Shown here: in pieces, positions 2,530 through 61,135 of the stretch
Layout: each line of letters begins with the position of its first letter
Position numbering within the stretch: position 1 is the stretch's first letter
Source of the DNA: Escherichia coli
GTDB lineage: Bacteria > Pseudomonadota > Gammaproteobacteria > Enterobacterales > Enterobacteriaceae
Assembly: GCF_050920415.1 (NCBI RefSeq)
Contig: NZ_CP169309.1
Length of the DNA stretch: 64,000 nt
Strand: one strand, 5' to 3'
Notes under the pieces: model-generated
Databases searched by the model: none
Told to the model about the DNA's origin: nothing
The model's input: the letters and a program-made list of their open reading frames with translations, nothing else
Position numbers and translations under genes: made by a program

Positions 2530-2560
2530 TATGAATTGCCGCTTCAACTCGGTTTTGTTG

Positions 2561-2636
2561 GCCTGATAAGCGAAGCGCCATCAGGCACTGTGACACCTTT
2601 TGCCGGATGTGGCATAAACGTCTTATCCGGCCTACT
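2561..2636. repeat. REP/BIME-like palindromic units in the cysI-cysH intergenic region
   Basis: Two GC-rich imperfect palindromes (gcctgataagcgaagcgccatcaggc and gccggatgtggcataaacgtcttatccggc) of the REP type. Confidence 0.6.
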
Positions 2637-3458: not shown

Positions 3459-3757
3459 GAGCCGCATTCCGGCATTTAAACGTGAATATAGCAGGGGAAA
3501 TCAACAGTTATAGAATGGCGTCGGGTGCTTGAGGCTGTCTGGCGTTAAGCATTCGCGAGGTTCCAGATGGACAAAAGCCCCAGGCGATATATCTATCAAC
3601 CTGAGGCTCGCGTTCGAACGTAGCAATTCGGATGTTAGTCTCTTCTTTGCAGGGAGGCAAGACATGTGTATATCACTGTAATTCGATATTTATGAGCAGC
3701 ATCGAAAAATAGTCCACTGATATCATCGATAATACTAAAAAAACAGGGAGGCTATTA

Positions 3758-6424
3758 ATGGAACCTTTTAAATATATATGTCATTACTGGGGGAAATCCT
3801 CAAAAAGCCTGACGAAAGGAAATGATATTCATCTGTTGATTTATCATTGCCTGGATGTTGCAGCTGTTGCAGATTGCTGGTGGGATCAATCAGTCGTACT
3901 ACAAAATGCTTTTTGCCGAAATGAAATGCTATCAAAACAGAAGGTGAAAGCCTGGCTGTTATTTTTCATTGCCCTTCATGATATCGGAAAGTTTGATATA
4001 CGATTCCAATATAAATCAGCAGAAAGTTGGCTGAAATTAAATCCTGCAACGTCATCACTTAATGGTCCATCAACACAAATGTGCCGTAAATTTAATCATG
4101 GTGCAGCCGGTCTGTATTGGTTTAACCAGGATTCACTTTCAGAGCAATCTCCCGGGGATTTTTTCAGTTTTTTTGATGCCGCTCCTCATCCTTATGAGTC
4201 CTGGTTTCCTTGGGTAGAGGCCGTTACAGGACATCATGGTTTTATATTACATTCCCAGGATCAAGATAAGTCGCGTTGGGAAATGCCAGCTTCTCTGGCA
4301 TCTTATGCTGCGCAAGATAAACAGGCTCGTGAGGAGTGGATATCTGTACTCGAAGCATTATTTTTAACACCAGCCGGGTTATCTATAAACGATATACCAC
4401 CTGATTGTTCATCATTGTTAGCAGGTTTTTGCTCGCTTGCTGACTGGTTAGGTTCCTGGACCACAACGGATACCTTTCTATTCAAAGAAGATGCACCTTC
4501 AGGCATACAAGCGCTAAGAAAATATTTTCAGGATAGACAACAGGATGCGTGTCGGGTACTGGAGTTGAGTGGCCTTGTATCAAATAAGCGTAGTTATGAC
4601 GGCGTACATGCCTTACTGGACAATGGCTATCAACCAAGACAATTACAGGTGTTGGTTGATGCTCTTCCTACAGCTCCCGGGCTGACGGTGATTGAGGCAC
4701 CTACGGGATCAGGTAAAACCGAAACAGCGCTGGCCTATGCCTGGAAACTTATTGACCAACAACTTGCGGATAGTGTTATTTTTGCCCTCCCTACACAAGC
4801 TACTGCAAATGCAATGCTCAGCAGAATGGAAGCGAACGCGAGCCGTTTATTTACCTCCCCAAATCTTATTCTTGCTCATGGTAATTCACGTTTTAACCAC
4901 CTTTTTCAATCAATAAAATCACGCGCATTTACTGAGCAGGGGCAAGAAGAAGCGTGGGTTCAGTGTTGCCAATGGTTGTCACAAAGCAATAAGAAAGTGT
5001 TTCTTGGGCAAATAGGAGTTTGCACGATTGATCAGGTGTTGATATCGGTATTGCCAGTTAAACACCGCTTTATCCGTGGTTTGGGAATTGGTCGAAGTGT
5101 TTTAATTGTTGATGAAGTTCATGCTTACGACACGTATATGAACGGCTTGCTGGAGGCTGTGCTCAAGGCTCAGGCTGATGTGGGGGGGAGTGTTATTCTT
5201 CTTTCCGCAACTCTACCAATGAAACAAAAACAGAAACTTCTGGATACTTATGGTCTGCATACAGATCCAGAGGAAAATAACTCCGCATATCCACTCATTA
5301 ACTGGCGAGGTGTGAATGGTGCGCAACGTTTTGATCTGTTAGCTCATCCAGAACAACTCCCGCCCCGCTTTTCAATTCAGCTAGAACCTATTTATTTAGC
5401 TGACATGTTACCTGACCTTACGATGTTAGAGCGAATGATCGCAGCGGCAAACGCGGGTGCACAAGTCTGTCTTATTTGCAATTTGGTTGACGTTGCACAA
5501 GTATGCTACCAACGGCTAAAGGAGCTAAATAACACGCAAGTAGATATAGATTTGTTTCATGCACGCTTTACGCTGAACGATCGTCGAGAAAAAGAGAATC
5601 GTGTTATTAGCGATTTCGGAAAAAATGGGGATCGAAATGTTGGACGAATACTTGTCGCCACGCAAGTCGTGGAACAATCGCTCGACGTTGATTTTGATTG
5701 GTTAATTACCCAGCATTGTCCCGCAGATTTGCTTTTCCAACGATTGGGCCGTTTACATCGTCATCATCGCAAATATCGTCCCGCTGGTTTTGAGATTCCT
5801 GTTGCCACCATTTTGCTGCCTGATGGCGAGGGTTACGGACGACATGAGCATATTTATAGCAACGTTAGAGTCATGTGGCGGACGCAGCAACATATTGAGG
5901 AACTTAATGGAGCATCCTTATTTTTCCCTGATGCTTACCGGCAATGGCTGGATAGCATTTACGATGATGCGGAAATGGATGAGCCAGAATGGGTCGGCAA
6001 TGGCATGGATAAATTTGAAAGCGCCGAGTGTGAAAAAAGGTTCAAGGCTCGTAAGGTTCTGCAGTGGGCTGAAGAATATAGCTTGCAGGATAACGATGAA
6101 ACCATTCTTGCGGTAACGAGGGATGGGGAAATGAGCCTGCCATTATTGCCTTATGTACAAACGTCTTCAGGTAAACAACTGCTCGATGGCCAGGTCTACG
6201 AGGACCTAAGTCATGAACAGCAGTATGAGGTGTTAGCACTTAATCGCGTCAATGTACCCTTCACTTGGAAACGTAGTTTTTCTGAAGTAGTAGATGAAGA
6301 TGGGTTACTTTGGCTGGAAGGGAAACAGAATCAGGATGGATGGATCTGGCAGGGTAATAATATTGTTATTACCTACACTCGGGATGAAGGGATGACCAGA
6401 GTCATCCCTGCAAATCCCAAATAA
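3758..6424 (+). CDS. cas3: Cas3 HD nuclease / DEAD-box helicase (type I-E)
   Basis: 888-aa ORF with an N-terminal HD domain (HDIGK), a Walker A motif (APTGSGKT) and a DEVH box; immediately precedes casABCDE. Confidence 0.95.
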   Translation: MEPFKYICHYWGKSSKSLTKGNDIHLLIYHCLDVAAVADCWWDQSVVLQNAFCRNEMLSKQKVKAWLLFFIALHDIGKFDIRFQYKSAESWLKLNPATSSLNGPSTQMCRKFNHGAAGLYWFNQDSLSEQSPGDFFSFFDAAPHPYESWFPWVEAVTGHHGFILHSQDQDKSRWEMPASLASYAAQDKQAREEWISVLEALFLTPAGLSINDIPPDCSSLLAGFCSLADWLGSWTTTDTFLFKEDAPSGIQALRKYFQDRQQDACRVLELSGLVSNKRSYDGVHALLDNGYQPRQLQVLVDALPTAPGLTVIEAPTGSGKTETALAYAWKLIDQQLADSVIFALPTQATANAMLSRMEANASRLFTSPNLILAHGNSRFNHLFQSIKSRAFTEQGQEEAWVQCCQWLSQSNKKVFLGQIGVCTIDQVLISVLPVKHRFIRGLGIGRSVLIVDEVHAYDTYMNGLLEAVLKAQADVGGSVILLSATLPMKQKQKLLDTYGLHTDPEENNSAYPLINWRGVNGAQRFDLLAHPEQLPPRFSIQLEPIYLADMLPDLTMLERMIAAANAGAQVCLICNLVDVAQVCYQRLKELNNTQVDIDLFHARFTLNDRREKENRVISDFGKNGDRNVGRILVATQVVEQSLDVDFDWLITQHCPADLLFQRLGRLHRHHRKYRPAGFEIPVATILLPDGEGYGRHEHIYSNVRVMWRTQQHIEELNGASLFFPDAYRQWLDSIYDDAEMDEPEWVGNGMDKFESAECEKRFKARKVLQWAEEYSLQDNDETILAVTRDGEMSLPLLPYVQTSSGKQLLDGQVYEDLSHEQQYEVLALNRVNVPFTWKRSFSEVVDEDGLLWLEGKQNQDGWIWQGNNIVITYTRDEGMTRVIPANPK

Positions 6425-12513: not shown

Positions 12514-13701
12514 GAGTTCCCCGCGCCAGCGGGGATAAACCGCTCGCGTATACTCTCTGCCAACGTCTCCAGATGAGTTCCCCGCGCCAGCGGGGATAAA
12601 CCGGCGGGATTATCGGCACTGACGTCGGCGCTGTGGAGTTCCCCGCGCCAGCGGGGATAAACCGGGTCGCTTCCATATATGAACCTTGAGGATTAGGAGT
12701 TCCCCGCGCCAGCGGGGATAAACCGGTTCCATGCACTGCCCGCAGTGTCAGCCGTACGAGTTCCCCGCGCCAGCGGGGATAAACCGGTAAATCATACGTT
12801 GGCATCAGTATTTTTCTCGAGTTCCCCGCGCCAGCGGGGATAAACCGACTCCGCGCCATTTGAGAATTCTCAGTTCTGCGAGTTCCCCGCGCCAGCGGGG
12901 ATAAACCGCTACTGCTGTCAGACGGCAGGGCAAAACAGCGGAGTTCCCCGCGCCAGCGGGGATAAACCGGACGTGCGGATGCTGTTTCTGGTTTTACCTC
13001 CGAGTTCCCCGCGCCAGCGGGGATAAACCGTTTTTTCTCAGCGTCTGGCAGAGCTAATCGCCGAGTTCCCCGCGCCAGCGGGGATAAACCGGTGTCAAAT
13101 TTCATGTAATTGATGATCCAGCTGAGTTCCCCGCGCCAGCGGGGATAAACCGGGTATTTCTCGTTAACACGGTCGTATCAAAACGAGTTCCCCGCGCCAG
13201 CGGGGATAAACCGAGGGGTTGCAACCATAGCCCTTAGTTGATTGCGAGTTCCCCGCGCCAGCGGGGATAAACCGCCAGTGGATTTTAATAAACTCTCCAG
13301 CGAGCAGAGTTCCCCGCGCCAGCGGGGATAAACCGTTCGCCACGTCAGGCGTGATTTCCTGCACTGAGAGTTCCCCGCGCCAGCGGGGATAAACAGGGCG
13401 CGTCTGCGCCCGCTAGGACTCGTGTCAAGAGTTCCCCGCGCCAGCGGGGATAAACCGGGAGTTCAGACATAGGTGGAATGATGGACTACGAGTTCCCCGC
13501 GTTAGCGGGGATAAACCGCCCGGTAGCCAGGTTTGCAACGCCTGAACCGAGAGTTCCCCGCGCCAGCAGGGATAAATCGGCAACGACGGTGAGATTTCAC
13601 GCCTGACGCTGGTGTTCCCCGCATCAGCGGGGATAAACCGGGCGCACTGGATGCGATGATGGATATCACTTAGAATTCCCCGCCCCTGCGGTAGAACTCC
13701 C
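12514..13701 (+). CRISPR. Type I-E CRISPR array: 19 regular 29-bp repeats plus one degenerate terminal repeat, 19 spacers of 32 bp
   Basis: Repeat GAGTTCCCCGCGCCAGCGGGGATAAACCG recurs with an exact 61-bp period from 12514 to 13612. Repeats at 13368, 13490, 13551 and 13612 carry point variants, and a heavily degenerate terminal repeat sits at 13673-13701. Confidence 0.97.
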
Positions 13702-24834: not shown

Positions 24835-24901
24835 TATGGGGAGTTGGTGTGTTTCGTCGCCTGGATAAGACACGTCAGCGTCCCATCCGGCAATCAACAT
24901 C

Positions 24902-25309
24902 CTATTTGCTCATCATCTTGCGCACCAGCTGCATAAACAGCTCCTGCTCTTCTCCACTCAAACGCCCCAAAAATTCCTCATCCACACTGTCGCCAATCGG
25001 TATCGCCGCAGCAAGTACCTTTTCTCCTTCGGCAGTCAGCCAGACAAAGCGTCGCCGCTTATCAGCGGTGTCATGTTCACGTCTGACTAAGCCACGATTT
25101 TCCATTCTTGCCAACATTTCTGCCAGCGTTGCTTTGGTGCTGACGGCTGCTTCCATCAGTGCCACCTGTTCGATACCAGGTTTATCAGCAATGGCGCGCA
25201 TCACCGCGTACTGTGGTTTGGTCAGGTCAGGTAACTCGTGCTGCCAGCGGGCCGTATGCTGCTGAAAAAGCTGTCGTAACTGATGGAACGCTTTATTTCG
25301 TAACGCCAT
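24902..25309 (-). CDS. MarR/SlyA-family transcriptional regulator
   Basis: 135-aa ORF with winged-helix MarR-like sequence; divergent from the decarboxylase operon. Confidence 0.8.
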   Translation of the reverse strand: MALRNKAFHQLRQLFQQHTARWQHELPDLTKPQYAVMRAIADKPGIEQVALMEAAVSTKATLAEMLARMENRGLVRREHDTADKRRRFVWLTAEGEKVLAAAIPIGDSVDEEFLGRLSGEEQELFMQLVRKMMSK

Positions 25310-50019: not shown

Positions 50020-50786
50020 TGAGCAATTTATTAGGCCCCCGTGACGCCAACGGCATTCCGGTCCCGATGACGGTGGATGAATCCATCGCCAGTATGAAGG
50101 CGTCGTTACTGAAAAAAATCAAACGTTCTGCCTACGTTTACCGCGTGGACTGCGGCGGCTGCAACGGCTGCGAAATTGAAATTTTCGCTACCTTATCGCC
50201 GCTGTTCGATGCAGAACGCTTCGGCATTAAAGTTGTGCCGTCTCCGCGTCATGCGGATATTTTACTGTTTACCGGCGCGGTCACCCGTGCAATGCGATCC
50301 CCTGCGCTGCGTGCGTGGCAGTCTGCGCCGGACCCGAAAATCTGTATCTCCTACGGCGCCTGCGGTAACAGCGGCGGGATCTTCCACGATCTCTACTGCG
50401 TGTGGGGGGGTACGGATAAAATCGTCCCGGTGGATGTCTACATTCCGGGGTGCCCGCCAACGCCTGCCGCCACGCTGTACGGCTTTGCAATGGCGCTCGG
50501 CCTGCTGGAGCAGAAAATTCACGCCCGTGGGCCGGGTGAACTGGATGAACAACCGGCAGAGATCCTGCATGGCGATATGGTGCAGCCGCTGCGTGTAAAA
50601 GTAGATCGCGAAGCACGCCGCCTGGCGGGTTATCGTTACGGTCGCCAGATTGCCGATGATTTCCTGACGCAGTTAGGGCAGGGTGAAGAGCAGGTTGCAC
50701 GCTGGCTGGAAGCGGAAAACGATCCGCGTCTGAACGAGATTGTCAGCCATCTGAATCATGTTGTTGAAGAGGCGCGTATTCGATGA
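50019..50786 (+). CDS. hycG: Hydrogenase 3 small subunit (NuoB-like)
   Basis: 255-aa ORF with Cys motifs (CGGCNGC, GCPP). Confidence 0.94.
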
Positions 50787-51193
50787 GTGAAAAGGTGGTG
50801 TTCAGTCAACTGAGCCGTAAATTTATTGATGAGAACGATGCTACGCCCGCCGAGGCGCAGCAGGTGGTCTATTATAGCCTGGCGATTGGTCACCACCTTG
50901 GGGTTATCGATTGCCTGGAAGCCGCGCTCACCTGCCCGTGGGATGAATATCTGGCATGGATTGCCACTCTGGAGGCGGGCAGTGAAGCCCGCCGTAAAAT
51001 GGAAGGCGTGCCGAAATATGGTGAGATCGTTATCGACATTAACCATGTGCCGATGCTGGCCAACGCATTCGATAAAGCCCGGGCAACGCAAACTTCGCAA
51101 CAGAAAGAATGGAGTACCATGCTGTTAAGTATGCTGCATGATATTTATCAGGAAAATGCCATCTATTTGATGGTGAGGAGACTGCGTGACTGA
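50783..51193 (+). CDS. hycH: Formate hydrogenlyase maturation protein HycH
   Basis: 136-aa ORF; 4-nt overlap with hycG. Confidence 0.92.
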
Positions 51194-51656
51194 CGTTTTA
51201 CTCTGTGTTGGCAATAGCATGATGGGCGATGATGGCGCAGGTCCGCTGCTGGCGGAAAAGTGCGCCGCCGCGCCGAAAGGTAACTGGGTGGTGATTGACG
51301 GCGGAAGCGCACCGGAAAACGACATTGTCGCCATCCGCGAACTGCGCCCGACACGACTGCTGATTGTCGACGCCACGGATATGGGGCTAAACCCCGGCGA
51401 GATCCGCATCATCGATCCGGATGACATCGCCGAGATGTTTATGATGACTACCCATAACATGCCGCTGAACTACCTTATCGACCAGTTGAAAGAAGATATT
51501 GGTGAAGTGATTTTCCTCGGTATCCAGCCGGATATCGTCGGTTTTTACTACCCGATGACCCAGCCGATTAAAGACGCCGTAGAAACCGTTTATCAACGTC
51601 TGGAAGGCTGGGAAGGGAATGGTGGATTTGCGCAGTTAGCGGTGGAAGAAGAGTAG
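51186..51656 (+). CDS. hycI: Hydrogenase 3 maturation endopeptidase HycI
   Basis: 156-aa ORF ([20 protein letters not shown]), HybD/HycI protease family. Confidence 0.94.
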   Translation: MTDVLLCVGNSMMGDDGAGPLLAEKCAAAPKGNWVVIDGGSAPENDIVAIRELRPTRLLIVDATDMGLNPGEIRIIDPDDIAEMFMMTTHNMPLNYLIDQLKEDIGEVIFLGIQPDIVGFYYPMTQPIKDAVETVYQRLEGWEGNGGFAQLAVEEE

Positions 51657-51823
51657 TTCGTAGACAAACATATTCACGTTTTTGAATTTGGACGTGCTAT
51701 TGTGACGGTTAGACGGGTGTTTACATATTGTGAACACTCGTGTGATCAACTACTATAGAAAAATAAAACCGAAGGAACGGGTAGTCCAGGCTTAGTCATT
51801 CAGGCGCTGATAAGGAAGTTAAA

Positions 51824-52135
51824 ATGCACATCATTTCTAAAGCGCCATTTGAAGAGTCTGCGCGTAAATATCCTAACGACGCTCTGGCTCTACACTCATT
51901 GTATCGGGTTATTAAGGAAACGGATTTTTCTACGCCAGAAGAAATGCGAACGGCGTTTCCCAACCTCGACAATTTTAAATATCGCAATAAATGGTACGTT
52001 CTGGATGTAGGCGGGAACAATCTTAGGGTTATTGCCTACATAAACTTTGTTAATAAGCGGTTCTTTGTGAAGCACATAACGAATCATGCCGAGTATGACA
52101 AACTGACACGTTACTACAGAGAGAACAAAGAATGA
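51824..52135 (+). CDS. HigB-like type II toxin (RelE/ParE superfamily mRNA interferase)
   Basis: 103-aa ORF (MHIISKAPFEE...FPNLDNFKYRNKWYVLDVGGNNLRVIAY...) with HigB-family architecture; Shine-Dalgarno aggaag upstream; 4-nt overlap (ATGA) with the downstream antitoxin gene; AT-richer than the flanking hyc genes. Confidence 0.75.
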   Translation: MHIISKAPFEESARKYPNDALALHSLYRVIKETDFSTPEEMRTAFPNLDNFKYRNKWYVLDVGGNNLRVIAYINFVNKRFFVKHITNHAEYDKLTRYYRENKE

Positions 52136-52551
52136 CTGCTAATGCTGCACGCGCTGTTAAAGCAACAAGAGAACTGGTCAATGCAGTCCCCTTTCTGGGA
52201 GGCAGTGACTCAGAAGATGATTATCGTGAAGCACTGGAACTGGTCGAATATTTGATTGAAGAAGATGACACCAATCCACTTATCGACTTTCTGGCGAGCC
52301 GTATTGCAGAATATGAAAACAACCACGAAAAGTTTGCAGAGTTCGATAAAGCCGTTGCAGCAATGCCGATTGGCGTGGCGTTACTTCGCACGCTGATTGA
52401 TCAACATAATCTGACCTATGCGGATTTGAAGAACGAAATCGGCTCTAAATCCCTGGTCAGTCAGATTTTGTCTGGACAAAGATCCCTGACGATATCCCAC
52501 ATTAAGGCACTTTCAGCCCGATTTGGCGTTAAGCCGGAATGGTTTCTTTGA
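52132..52551 (+). CDS. HigA-like antitoxin (XRE-family HTH)
   Basis: 139-aa ORF whose C-terminal HTH (GSKSLVSQILSGQRSLTISHIKALSARFGV) and N-terminal region resemble HigA; toxin-first gene order typical of higBA. Confidence 0.75.
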   Translation: MTANAARAVKATRELVNAVPFLGGSDSEDDYREALELVEYLIEEDDTNPLIDFLASRIAEYENNHEKFAEFDKAVAAMPIGVALLRTLIDQHNLTYADLKNEIGSKSLVSQILSGQRSLTISHIKALSARFGVKPEWFL

Positions 52552-52574
52552 TTTTTGACAGATGCCAAACGCCA

Positions 52575-52660
52575 GATTGCCCGATGTGCTGCGCTTATCG
52601 GGCCTACATGTCGCACGAACTATGTAGGCCGGATAAGGCGTTCACGCCGCATCCGGCACG
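52575..52660. repeat. REP/BIME palindromic units between the higA-like gene and ascB
   Basis: gcccgatgtgctgcgcttatcgggcctaca and tgtaggccggataaggcgttcacgccgcatccggca GC-rich imperfect palindromes. Confidence 0.6.
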
Positions 52661-52665
52661 TTTGC

Positions 52666-55556
<2,891 letters not shown>

Positions 55557-57655: not shown

Positions 57656-59908
57656 ATGGCAAAAAACACATCTTGCGGTGTCCAACTGCGTATTCGTGGC
57701 AAAGTGCAGGGCGTCGGTTTTCGTCCCTTTGTCTGGCAACTGGCACAGCAATTAAATCTTCACGGCGATGTCTGTAATGACGGCGATGGCGTGGAAGTCC
57801 GGTTGCTGGAAGATCCGGAAATGTTTCTTGTTCAATTGCATCAGCACTGCCCGCCGCTGGCGCGTATTGATAGCGTCGAATGTGAGCAGTTTATCTGGAT
57901 GCAGCCGCCCACTGAGTTCACCATCCGCCAGAGCGCGGGCGGCGTCATGAATACGCAAATTGTTCCCGATGCCGCAACTTGCCCTGCCTGTCTTGCCGAA
58001 ATGAATACTCCAGGCGAACGGCGTTATCGTTATCCGTTTATCAACTGTACCCACTGCGGCCCGCGTTTCACCATTATTCGCGCGATGCCTTACGACCGTC
58101 CATTTACCGTGATGGCGGCGTTTCCGCTTTGTCCGGCCTGCGATAAAGAATATCGCGACCCGCTCGATCGTCGCTTCCACGCCCAGCCGGTGGCCTGCCC
58201 GGAGTGTGGCCCGCATCTTGAATGGCTAAGTCATGGTGAACATGCAGAACAAGAGGCGGCATTACAGGCAGCTATCGCACAGTTAAAAATGGGCAACATT
58301 GTCGCCATCAAAGGGATTGGCGGATTTCATCTCGCCTGCGATGCGCGTAACAGTAACGCGGTGGCGACACTTCGGGCACGCAAACATCGCCCGGCGAAAC
58401 CGCTGGCGGTCATGTTGCCAGTGACAGAAGATTTACCAGACGCTGCCCGTCAGTTGCTCACCACGCCCGCCGCGCCGATTGTGCTGGTGGATAAAAAATA
58501 TGTTCCGGAACTTTGTGACGATATCGCCCCTGGCCTTAACGAAGTCGGGGTGATGTTGCCTGCGAATCCGCTCCAGCATTTGCTGTTACAGGAACTGCAA
58601 TGCCCGCTGGTGATGACCTCCGGCAACCTGAGCGGTAAACCACCGGCTATCAGCAACGAACAGGCGCTGGAGGATTTGCAGGACATTGCCGACGGATTCT
58701 TGATTCATAACCGCGACATCGTGCAGCGGATGGATGATTCAGTGGTGCGCGAAAGTGGCGAAATGTTGCGCCGCTCGCGGGGGTATGTACCGGATGCGCT
58801 GGCTTTGCCTCCGGGCTTTAAAAATATTCCTCCTGTGTTGTGTCTCGGTGCGGATCTGAAAAATACCTTCTGTCTGGTGCGTGGTGAACAGGCGGTGTTG
58901 AGTCAACATTTGGGCGATTTAAGTGACGATGGCATTCAGATGCAGTGGCGCGAAGCGTTGCGTCTGATGCAAAACATCTACGATTTTACTCCACAGTTTG
59001 TGGTGCATGATGCGCATCCGGGCTATGTCTCCAGCCAGTGGGCGCGTGAGATGAATCTGCCGACGCAAACGGTGCTGCATCACCATGCCCACGCGGCGGC
59101 GTGTCTGGCAGAACATCACTGGCCGCTGGATGGCGGTGATGTCATTGCTTTGACGCTCGACGGTATTGGTATGGGCGAGAACGGCGCTTTATGGGGCGGC
59201 GAGTGCTTGCGGGTGAACTATCGCGAATGCCAGCACCTGGGCGGTTTGCCTGCGGTGGCGCTTGTTGGTGGCGATTTGGCTGCAAAGCAGCCGTGGCGTA
59301 ACCTGCTGGCGCAGTGCCTGCGCTTTGTGCCGGAGTGGCAGAATTACTCTGAAACGGCAAGTGTGCAACAGCAAAACTGGAGCGTGCTGGCGCGGGCCAT
59401 TGAGCGTGGAATCAATGCTCCGCTGGCATCATCGTGTGGGCGGTTGTTCGATGCCGTATCGGCTGCGCTGGGCTGTGCGCCAGCCACGTTAAGTTATGAA
59501 GGTGAAGCGGCTTGTGCTCTGGAGGCGCTCGCAGCTTCGTGCCACGGAGTGACGCATCCGGTGACGATGCCGCTGGTGGACAATCAACTGGATCTCGCCA
59601 CTTTCTGGCAGCAGTGGCTGAACTGGCAGGCTCCGGTTAATCAACGCGCGTGGGCGTTTCATGATGCACTGGCGCAGGGTTTTGCCGCGTTGATGCGTGA
59701 GCAGGCCACGATGTGCGGTATCACTACGCTGGTATTTAGCGGTGGGGTTATTCATAACCGTTTGCTGCGTGCACGTCTGGCGCATTATCTTGCTGATTTT
59801 ACGTTGCTCTTCCCGCAGAGTTTACCTGCGGGGGATGGCGGGTTGTCTCTGGGGCAGGGGGTTATTGTTGCGGCCCGTTGGGTGGCGGGTGAAGTCCAGA
59901 ACGGATAA
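57656..59908 (+). CDS. hypF: [NiFe]-hydrogenase maturation carbamoyltransferase HypF
   Basis: 750 aa from the ATG at 57656 ([25 protein letters not shown]); acylphosphatase domain, two zinc-finger CxxC pairs, YrdC and Kae1-like domains. Confidence 0.94.
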
Positions 59909-59930
59909 ACGTGTTGCATTTGGGCGCAGT

Positions 59931-59962
59931 GCCGGATGCGGCGTGAACGCCTTATCCGGCCT
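59931..59962. repeat. REP-like palindromic unit between hypF and norW
   Basis: gccggatgcggcgtgaacgccttatccggcc GC-rich imperfect palindrome between the hypF stop and the 3' end of norW. Confidence 0.55.
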
Positions 59963-60001
59963 TGTATTATCCCTCCAGGCATTTTGGGTACAGTAGCCCG
60001 C

Positions 60002-61135
60002 CTACATCGGCAAGGTTTTCAACATTCCAAACGCCTCTTTCATCCGATCCTCACTGACTACAAAGGCGCGAAGCTGGTCGGCATCGTCAACGCCGCGCGC
60101 CACCATTCCCTGGCTTTCGGTACAAATCTGCCAGCGCAAATCCTGACGCTGGGTTTCGCCTGCCAGATGCAGCGGTAATTCCGGCGTTTTGATTTTCACC
60201 AGCATCGCCGGTAGTTTCAGCGGCGTGTTATTGCCGAGAAGATTTTTTGCCAGCACCATCGCGCTAAGTTGAATCGGCTGGAGGAACGGCAATACCTGAC
60301 CGTTAATTTCTGCGCAATCGCCCAGCGCGTAAATATCGGCATTACTGGTTTGCAGATAGCTATCGACGCAAACGCCGCGATTAATCGTCAGCCCGGCGCG
60401 TCGTGCCAGGGCGGTTTCCGGGCGCAGTCCGGTGGCGGCAATTACCGCATCCACTTCGATGCTGCGCTGGCGGTCCAGCGTTGCCAGAATGCCATAATTC
60501 GTTTTTTCCAGCCCCTGCAACTGAGATTTCAACAGCAGATGAACGCCCATCTCCGTCAACCGATGCTGTAAGCGACTGCTTACTTCCGGTGGCATTAACG
60601 ACGCCAGAATACTGGCAGCGTTGTCGATTAGCGTGACCGCTTTGCCTGCCCGACAAAAATCCATCGCCAGCTCGCTACCAATCAAGCCACCGCCTACAAT
60701 CAACACCCGTCGGGCATCCCGCAGTTGTGTTTCACAGGCGCGATATTCTTGCTGACTATTTAACGTCAGCATTAACTCACGCCCAGGCACCGGCGGGACA
60801 AAGGCGCTGGCTCCGGTAGCCAGCACTAGCTTGTCGTATTGCCACTGATTATTCTGGCTTTTCACCACATGGGCTTCGGCATCGATATCCGTCACCCAGG
60901 TGTGCGGAAACAGGCGCAGATTAAACTGCTCGGCAAATTCACCCGCCGTCTGGCGGGTAAGGTCGTCGGCACGTTGCCCCTGACTGATCACATGGCTAAG
61001 ATCAGGTTTGTTGTACTCATCCATGCTGTCGGCGGCAATCAGGGTCAATGGAATACTGGCGTCCTGTTTGCGAATATTTTTCACCAGTTGGCGGGCGGCG
61101 AAGCCCGAACCAATGATCACAATGCCGTTGCTCAT
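60002..61135 (-). CDS. norW: NADH:flavorubredoxin reductase
   Basis: 377-aa ORF with FAD/NAD Rossmann motifs (GSGFAA, GGGLIG); 4-nt overlap with norV. Confidence 0.94.

Follow-up and report, generated by a model that had tools for sequence, protein, structure and literature searches.

Introduction

REP and BIME sequences belong to the bacterial repeats that have been known the longest, and they are expected at gene junctions such as those described here.

REP units (PU) of Escherichia coli belong to the classes y (35 nt), z1 (29 nt) and z2 (37 nt), carry a GTAG box and an AA-GC bulge, and constitute a BIME when a REP, an inverted REP and a linker are combined (PMC8266576). In REPIN/RAYT systems, REP doublets are mobilised by a domesticated Y1 transposase (PMC3116915, PMC2817692). 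No mutation of GTAG is tolerated for RAYT, which is reported to cleave at CT dinucleotides near REPs (PMC8266576). IS621, of the IS110 family, possesses a bridge-RNA recombinase and inserts into REP tails (PMC11208160; PMC1525189); the target loop of its bridge RNA specifies the 11-nt sequence ATCGGGCCTAC (PMC11208160). The intact element consists of a recombinase gene and a left end of ~190 nt encoding the bridge RNA. A dual role of REP as terminator and stabiliser is described for REP325 of the yjdMN operon, a Rho-dependent attenuator and mRNA stabiliser (bioRxiv 10.64898/2026.03.23.713779).

The window, the whole 64,000-nt stretch of E. coli DNA that was analysed, contains six REP units. 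Like E. coli REP and BIME elements (PMC8266576), they are bulged, imperfect palindromes of 29–37 nt, extragenic, of a high-copy family and partly arranged in inverse pairs with a short linker, and three of them have an intact GTAG box. They differ in that the GTAG box is mutated or truncated in 3/6 units, in that no linker contains an IHF site (L-type), and in that the pair between cysI and cysH is a rare allele replacing the common single z2 unit. Inverted REP doublets, a short spacer and GTAG-type REPs are shared with REPIN/RAYT; the window has no RAYT gene, and its pairs mix z1 and y instead of having two identical arms. An IS621 target, ATCGGGCCTAC, is present at 52597-52607 inside the z1 unit near ascB, as an exact 11-nt match, and relatives carry insertions exactly after its CT core. 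The IS621 left end is represented by its first 16 nt, directly behind the REP unit of hypF. The window contains neither the IS621 gene nor its bridge RNA, and the scar is read as a later, non-site-specific deletion that also took the REP next to it; when an IS110 element excises normally, no scar is left. As with REP325, REP hairpins occur between tandem operon genes (cysI-cysH) and between convergent genes; unlike REP325, there are only two units instead of a long array.

Window and gene map

The window is a part of the E. coli chromosome extending from cysJIH to norR. Strain MFDS1022581 (NZ_CP169399.1) is 100% identical to it over the stretches tested. Gene positions were taken from the RefSeq annotation of this near-identical genome and from ORF lists:

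End 2529, cysI
Start 2666, cysH
End 24781, rpoS
24902-25309, minus strand, MarR-like (MarR-family) gene
End 51656, hycI
51824-52135, higB
52132-52551, HTH/higA-like gene
52666-54090, minus strand, ascB
End 59908, hypF
From 60002, minus strand, norW

The sole difference found between the window and NZ_CP169399.1 is five extra internal CRISPR repeat-spacer units, and the window therefore comes from a sibling strain of NZ_CP169399.1 or an assembly variant. The type I-E CRISPR array of the window (~12514-13640) has 19 repeats and 18 spacers; that of NZ_CP169399.1 has 14 repeats and 13 spacers, all common to the window, and is without the five internal spacers.

Regions 2250-2950, 50500-54500 and 59650-60250 are ~92–96% identical to most E. 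coli genomes and reach an identity of at least 99% in just 2–19 genomes. This low identity suggests a divergent lineage or imported segments.

Scanned as a whole against Rfam at gathering thresholds, the window gave a sole match, the sok antitoxin RNA (97 bits) at 3523-3678 between cysH and cas3; no REP family exists in Rfam. A 50-codon HOK_GEF gene is called in the cysH-cas3 interval of a related assembly.

Identity of the REP units

The initial annotation had reported REP/BIME palindromes at three junctions. The palindromes are real at all three and had been placed within a few bases. They comprise five REP units; a fourth REP-bearing junction, between rpoS and the MarR-like gene (24856-24892), had been missed. 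The six units are:

2557-2587, plus strand, z1-like REP; 26/30 to the z1 consensus; GTTG box; hairpin of −13.5 kcal/mol
2601-2635, minus strand, degenerate y REP; 31/35 to the y consensus; GTAG intact
24856-24892, plus strand, degenerate z2-like REP; 31/36 to the z2 consensus by hand alignment; GTCG box
52578-52607, minus strand, z1 REP; 29/30 to the z1 consensus; GTAG intact
52624-52658, plus strand, canonical y REP; 35/35, zero mismatches
59930-59962, minus strand, y REP palindrome downstream of hypF; 33/35 over 59930-59964

When scanned with REP consensus models, as the initial annotation had proposed, the flagged sites agreed with the y and z1 consensuses at 26/30 to 35/35 positions. When at most 3 mismatches are allowed, the 34-nt y consensus has 2 matches in the window, one exact at 52624-52657 and one with 2 mismatches at 59931-59964, against 0.00 expected, and 0/100 shuffles reach this count. 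The 14-nt tail motif CTTATCMGGCCTAC (at most 2 mismatches) has 6 matches against 0.37 expected (0/100 shuffles), 5/6 of them on the described REP units. Searches by blastn-short with five REP seeds recovered the same five units, plus one near 24863-24889.

Hairpins of the five units at the flagged junctions have a 2+2 internal bulge and folding energies of −11 to −21 kcal/mol. In these units a 7-bp outer stem is joined to an inner stem through a bulge (2+2 or 2+1). The sixth unit (24856-24892) folds in a similar but less regular way. The REP units carry the diagnostic GATAAG...CGCATC bulge and the GGCCTAC tail. The GTAG box, located 5' of the palindrome, is intact in three of the six (2601-2635, 52578-52607 and 52624-52658) and altered in the other three: GTTG at 2557-2587, GTCG at 24856-24892, and CAAG at 59930-59964, where it is cut by an IS621 scar. 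Both the RefSeq annotation of the near-identical genome and the ORF lists place all six units between genes. Queries containing a y unit match a median of at least 28–38 places per E. coli genome. Folding z-scores of whole intergenic regions are unremarkable (−1.3 for cysI-cysH, −1.2 to −1.7 for hypF-norW), because the shuffled sequences are equally GC-rich.

The BIME layout, inverse REPs with a short linker, is present at cysI-cysH (13-nt linker) and at higA/ascB (16-nt linker). The IHF consensus WATCAANNNNTTR was sought on both strands of the four intergenic regions, and no IHF-like motif was found. Identity with BIME-1/RIP, the IHF-binding BIME, is ruled out by the lack of an IHF site in the linkers.

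The unit at 24856-24892 lies within the convergent rpoS/MarR-like intergenic region, 9 nt from the stop codon of the MarR-like gene. Its minus-strand RNA hairpin has a folding energy of −25.1 kcal/mol (z = −4.7).

With high confidence, these elements belong to the REP family of E. coli (classes y, z1 and z2) and are arranged partly as BIME pairs, and the pair near ascB is older than higBA; their function would be as described in the literature.

cysI-cysH junction

The cysI-cysH intergenic region (2530-2665, 136 nt) contains a z1-like and a y-like unit in inverse orientation. The first hairpin (2557-2587) begins 27 nt past the cysI stop codon; the second (2601-2635) ends 30 nt ahead of the cysH ATG. 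A promoter scan between cysI and cysH detected no promoter-like site.

The usual E. coli spacer, present in nearly all strains (e.g. L005), is 74 nt long and has a single z2 unit. The two-REP allele occurs in 3/5,426 RefSeq complete genomes and is identical across the other assemblies read that have exactly the same CysH (24 contigs), all of them of this lineage. By megablast its units are found at one place per genome, as low-copy, diverged variants. The homologue of the 2557-2587 unit in L016 has an intact GTAG, and strain 2020CK-00188 has a more canonical version of the junction, GTAG intact.

hypF-norW junction

The initial annotation had listed a REP copy at 59931-59962. It is a y-class REP, as proposed, but not an intact one, being truncated by an IS621 insertion scar. 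The two differences from the consensus over 59930-59964 correspond to the loss of 'GT' from the GTAG box (..AG is left), and the break falls right after the CT of ...GGCCT. The adjoining feature is:

59963-59978, plus strand, IS621 left-end remnant of 16 nt, TGTATTATCCCTCCAG; 16/16 nt, as in L014 and L004

This 16-mer is unique in the window (0 expected). Directly after it stands the sequence that lies beyond the partner z2 REP in other strains. Only one REP unit is left between hypF and norW (59930-60001), the z2 partner and the linker being gone. K-12-like strains possess a y unit and an inverted z2 unit, other strains three units, and relatives a y unit with 1–3 z2 units; some strains have a quite different hypF-norW junction with no REP-type palindrome apparent. 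An intact IS621 is inserted at the same hypF REP in L014 and 12 genomes. The scarred junction occurs in 1/5,426 complete E. coli genomes. Apart from these 16 nt, nothing of an intact IS621 is left in the window, and the annotation of the near-identical genome lists no IS110-family gene.

The junction is read as the product of an IS621 insertion followed by a deletion that would have removed the IS from position 17 on, the linker and nearly all of z2. Excision by the recombinase at a CT core was considered as the origin of the scar and rejected: the deletion junction, ...ccctccag/gcatttt..., has no CT core. The deletion is therefore taken as an ordinary illegitimate event.

IS621 target and linker inversion at the ascB pair

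The higA-like/ascB intergenic region (52552-52665) carries the z1 and canonical y units. The y unit (52624-52658) ends 7 nt from the stop codon of ascB. Between the two units is:

52608-52623, no strand assigned, inter-REP linker of 16 bp, the GTAG-box ends facing each other

IS621 sites were defined by the 11-nt target with its CT core (ATCAGGCCTAC / ATCGGGCCTAC) and by element ends abutting the core. In L003 and L004, IS621 is inserted exactly after the CT of ATCGGGCCTAC in the z1 unit. A junction-specific query found IS621 at this unit in 197/5,426 genomes, including E. coli W.

In the window the linker reads ATGTCGCACGAACTAT, exactly the reverse complement of ATAGTTCGTGCGACAT in L097, and its orientation is opposite to that of K-12 and the outgroups. 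It is bounded by 18-bp inverted arms, made up of the REP tails and the two outermost linker bases per side, with 15/18 positions in agreement. The inverted linker is present in 645/5,426 genomes: uninterrupted in 449, and in ~196 matching only from the IS621 junction onward. Essentially all of the 197 IS621 insertions are therefore on the inverted background.

ST131-type strains (L013 ~4330-4360; also L098) have the asc operon replaced by a different gene. Their homology to the window stops at the tail of a degenerate z1 unit, which is another breakpoint at this site.

The linker inversion is most likely due to template switching within the quasi-palindrome. It is very improbable that the pair is an active micro-hotspot with the linker inverted by RAYT or by the IS621 recombinase. 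The basis for that reading is the occurrence of five structural events within, or at most 16 bp from, one 80-bp element: the higBA insertion, IS621, the linker inversion, the asc-replacement breakpoint and, beyond the cassette, the loss of ORF251. If a REP-specific enzyme did make the inversion, the site would be a natural example of REP-guided DNA inversion.

Age of the ascB pair and the higBA cassette

The initial annotation had suggested that the copy at 52575-52660 marks the TA insertion or facilitated it, and had proposed a comparison of the hycI-ascB junction in strains lacking the TA pair, in which absence of the REP would make it a part of the insertion. The comparison gave the opposite result: the z1 + y pair is present in TA-less strains, so that it was there before the cassette. 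Pair and linker occupy the same position relative to ascB in the TA-less E. coli L002 (K-12-like), L011, L012 and L019. The z1 + y pair is also present in E. albertii and in E. coli E69, and the z1 unit alone in E. whittamii, none of them with higB or the HTH gene. Outgroups were scanned with a HycI query and 10-kb flanks in 80 species representatives; near hycI, 0/80 encoded any protein homologous to HigB or to the HTH protein. Since the pair occurs in TA-less strains and in outgroups, it predates higBA and is no part of the cassette. By this comparison the ascB pair dates back to the ancestor of the genus Escherichia, or at any rate long precedes the higBA cassette.

A 251-codon ORF (ORF251) directly follows hycI in E. 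whittamii, E. albertii, Escherichia sp. MOD1-EC7003 and E. coli E69. In E. albertii and E69 its stop codon is followed within ~18 nt by the z1 + y pair, and in E. whittamii by the z1 unit alone. ORF251 is present at a coverage of at least 80% in 1,463 genomes. The full allele, hycI-ORF251-higB-higA-BIME-ascB, is present in E. coli L097 and L098, where the cassette is flanked by the 5-bp direct repeat ACTGA (...cagaACTGA/cttttt...higB...higA...ttttg/ACTGA/tgccaaa). The junction letters are ...cagaACTGA/cassette/ACTGAtgccaaa in L097 and ...cagaACTGAtggcaaa in the ancestral E69; the ancestral state has one ACTGA, overlapping the ORF251 stop codon. In the window, the corresponding edge is:

52558-52562, plus strand, cassette right edge, ACAGA, a mutated copy of ACTGA; by comparison with L097 and E69

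Ancestral sequence restarts at this ACAGA, 15 nt ahead of the z1 REP. The insertion point is thus 15–16 bp outside the z1 unit, on the side opposite the GTAG box. The window allele keeps the right junction in mutated form but is without ORF251, and the sequence ahead of its higB is a different one, shared by 343 genomes. A third allele (L003) has ORF251 and the HTH gene, and is without higB. Coordinates of the alleles compared are window 51657-52562, L097 1400-2340 and L018 9015-9175.

The K-12-like spacer is what remained of ORF251 after loss of an internal stretch between GGGATGT repeats, and no trace of the cassette is seen in it. An origin of this spacer by two deletions, of ORF251 and of the HTH gene, was dropped, as the outgroups have ORF251 and then directly the REP. 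On these alignments the "empty" K-12-like site is a deletion derivative of the ancestral ORF251 arrangement, not the pre-insertion state.

Of the proposed link between the REP and the TA insertion, one part stands: the pair marks the site and was already there. Facilitation finds no evidence, the cassette edge being 15–16 bp outside the REP. It is very unlikely that the REP/BIME guided higBA into place, for instance by way of a RAYT cut at a nearby CT or of recombination at the hairpin. The ACTGA insertion point does hold a CT, 16 bp from the REP, and the ascB pair hosts other rearrangements (IS621 insertion, inversion of the linker and a breakpoint where the asc operon was replaced). Against this, the junction is on the side of z1 away from GTAG and coincides with the ORF251 stop codon; within the cassette there is neither a REP nor a hairpin nor an IS end; a 5-bp repeat such as ACTGA can come from many mechanisms; and a single event permits no statistics. 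Neither IS621 nor any other insertion known to target REPs leaves a junction of this kind. The link is unsupported as facilitation and reduces to proximity. That the pair instead belongs to the cassette and arrived with it can be dismissed: the edge of the cassette and the higA-like stop codon are only 15–26 nt away, but the same z1 + y pair is found in TA-less E. coli, E. albertii and E69, and z1 in E. whittamii, and the flanking ACTGA repeat is outside the REP.

Proposed function

At the DNA level, the units are non-coding, non-autonomous palindromic repeats that would depend for their spread and upkeep on the RAYT/TnpA-REP transposase, which recognises the 5' GTAG box and the bulged hairpin (PMC8266576). 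As GTAG is mutated or truncated in three units, these are predicted to be inactive as RAYT substrates. REPs would serve as IS621 targets as well (PMC11208160).

At the RNA level, stable hairpins at 3' ends and between cistrons may shield the upstream message from 3'-to-5' exonucleases, and may partly terminate read-through by Rho-dependent attenuation. The pair between cysI and cysH would favour expression of cysJI over cysH. At the convergent higA/ascB and hypF/norW junctions, the REPs would act as two-way 3'-end structures. Each of these RNA-level effects, like the dependence on RAYT, is carried over from published REP systems and may hold here. REPs near stop codons are reported to lower translation (Liang, Rudd and Deutscher, 2015).

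A scan for hairpin-plus-T-run terminators in the three intergenic regions cysI-cysH, higA/ascB and hypF/norW found none. The promoter/terminator scan gave few matches, located inside coding sequence and at about the chance level estimated from shuffles. This result fits a reading of the REP hairpins as the main 3' structures at the convergent junctions. The palindromes could be taken for gene-specific intrinsic terminators or for chance GC-rich palindromes outside any repeat family, given that the units are located at gene 3' ends and that those of cysI-cysH are low-copy, but this reading is refuted for the y and z1 units and has a negligible probability overall: identity to the REP consensuses is 26/30 to 35/35 including bulge and tail, no T-run follows any hairpin, 0/100 shuffles match the observed counts, and the y unit is found dozens of times per genome.

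Significance

The flagged palindromes are correctly identified elements of an already-known and ordinary kind. The main use of the result is corrective and concerns the age of the REP and the status of the K-12-like site: the REP near ascB is ancestral and hence unusable as evidence on the manner or time of the cassette's arrival. Three real but minor variants, namely the IS621 scar, the inverted linker and the rare two-hairpin allele of cysI-cysH, make handy lineage markers. The two-hairpin allele could shift the cysJI:cysH expression ratio in its lineage. These local variants illustrate how structural change builds up at REP sites.
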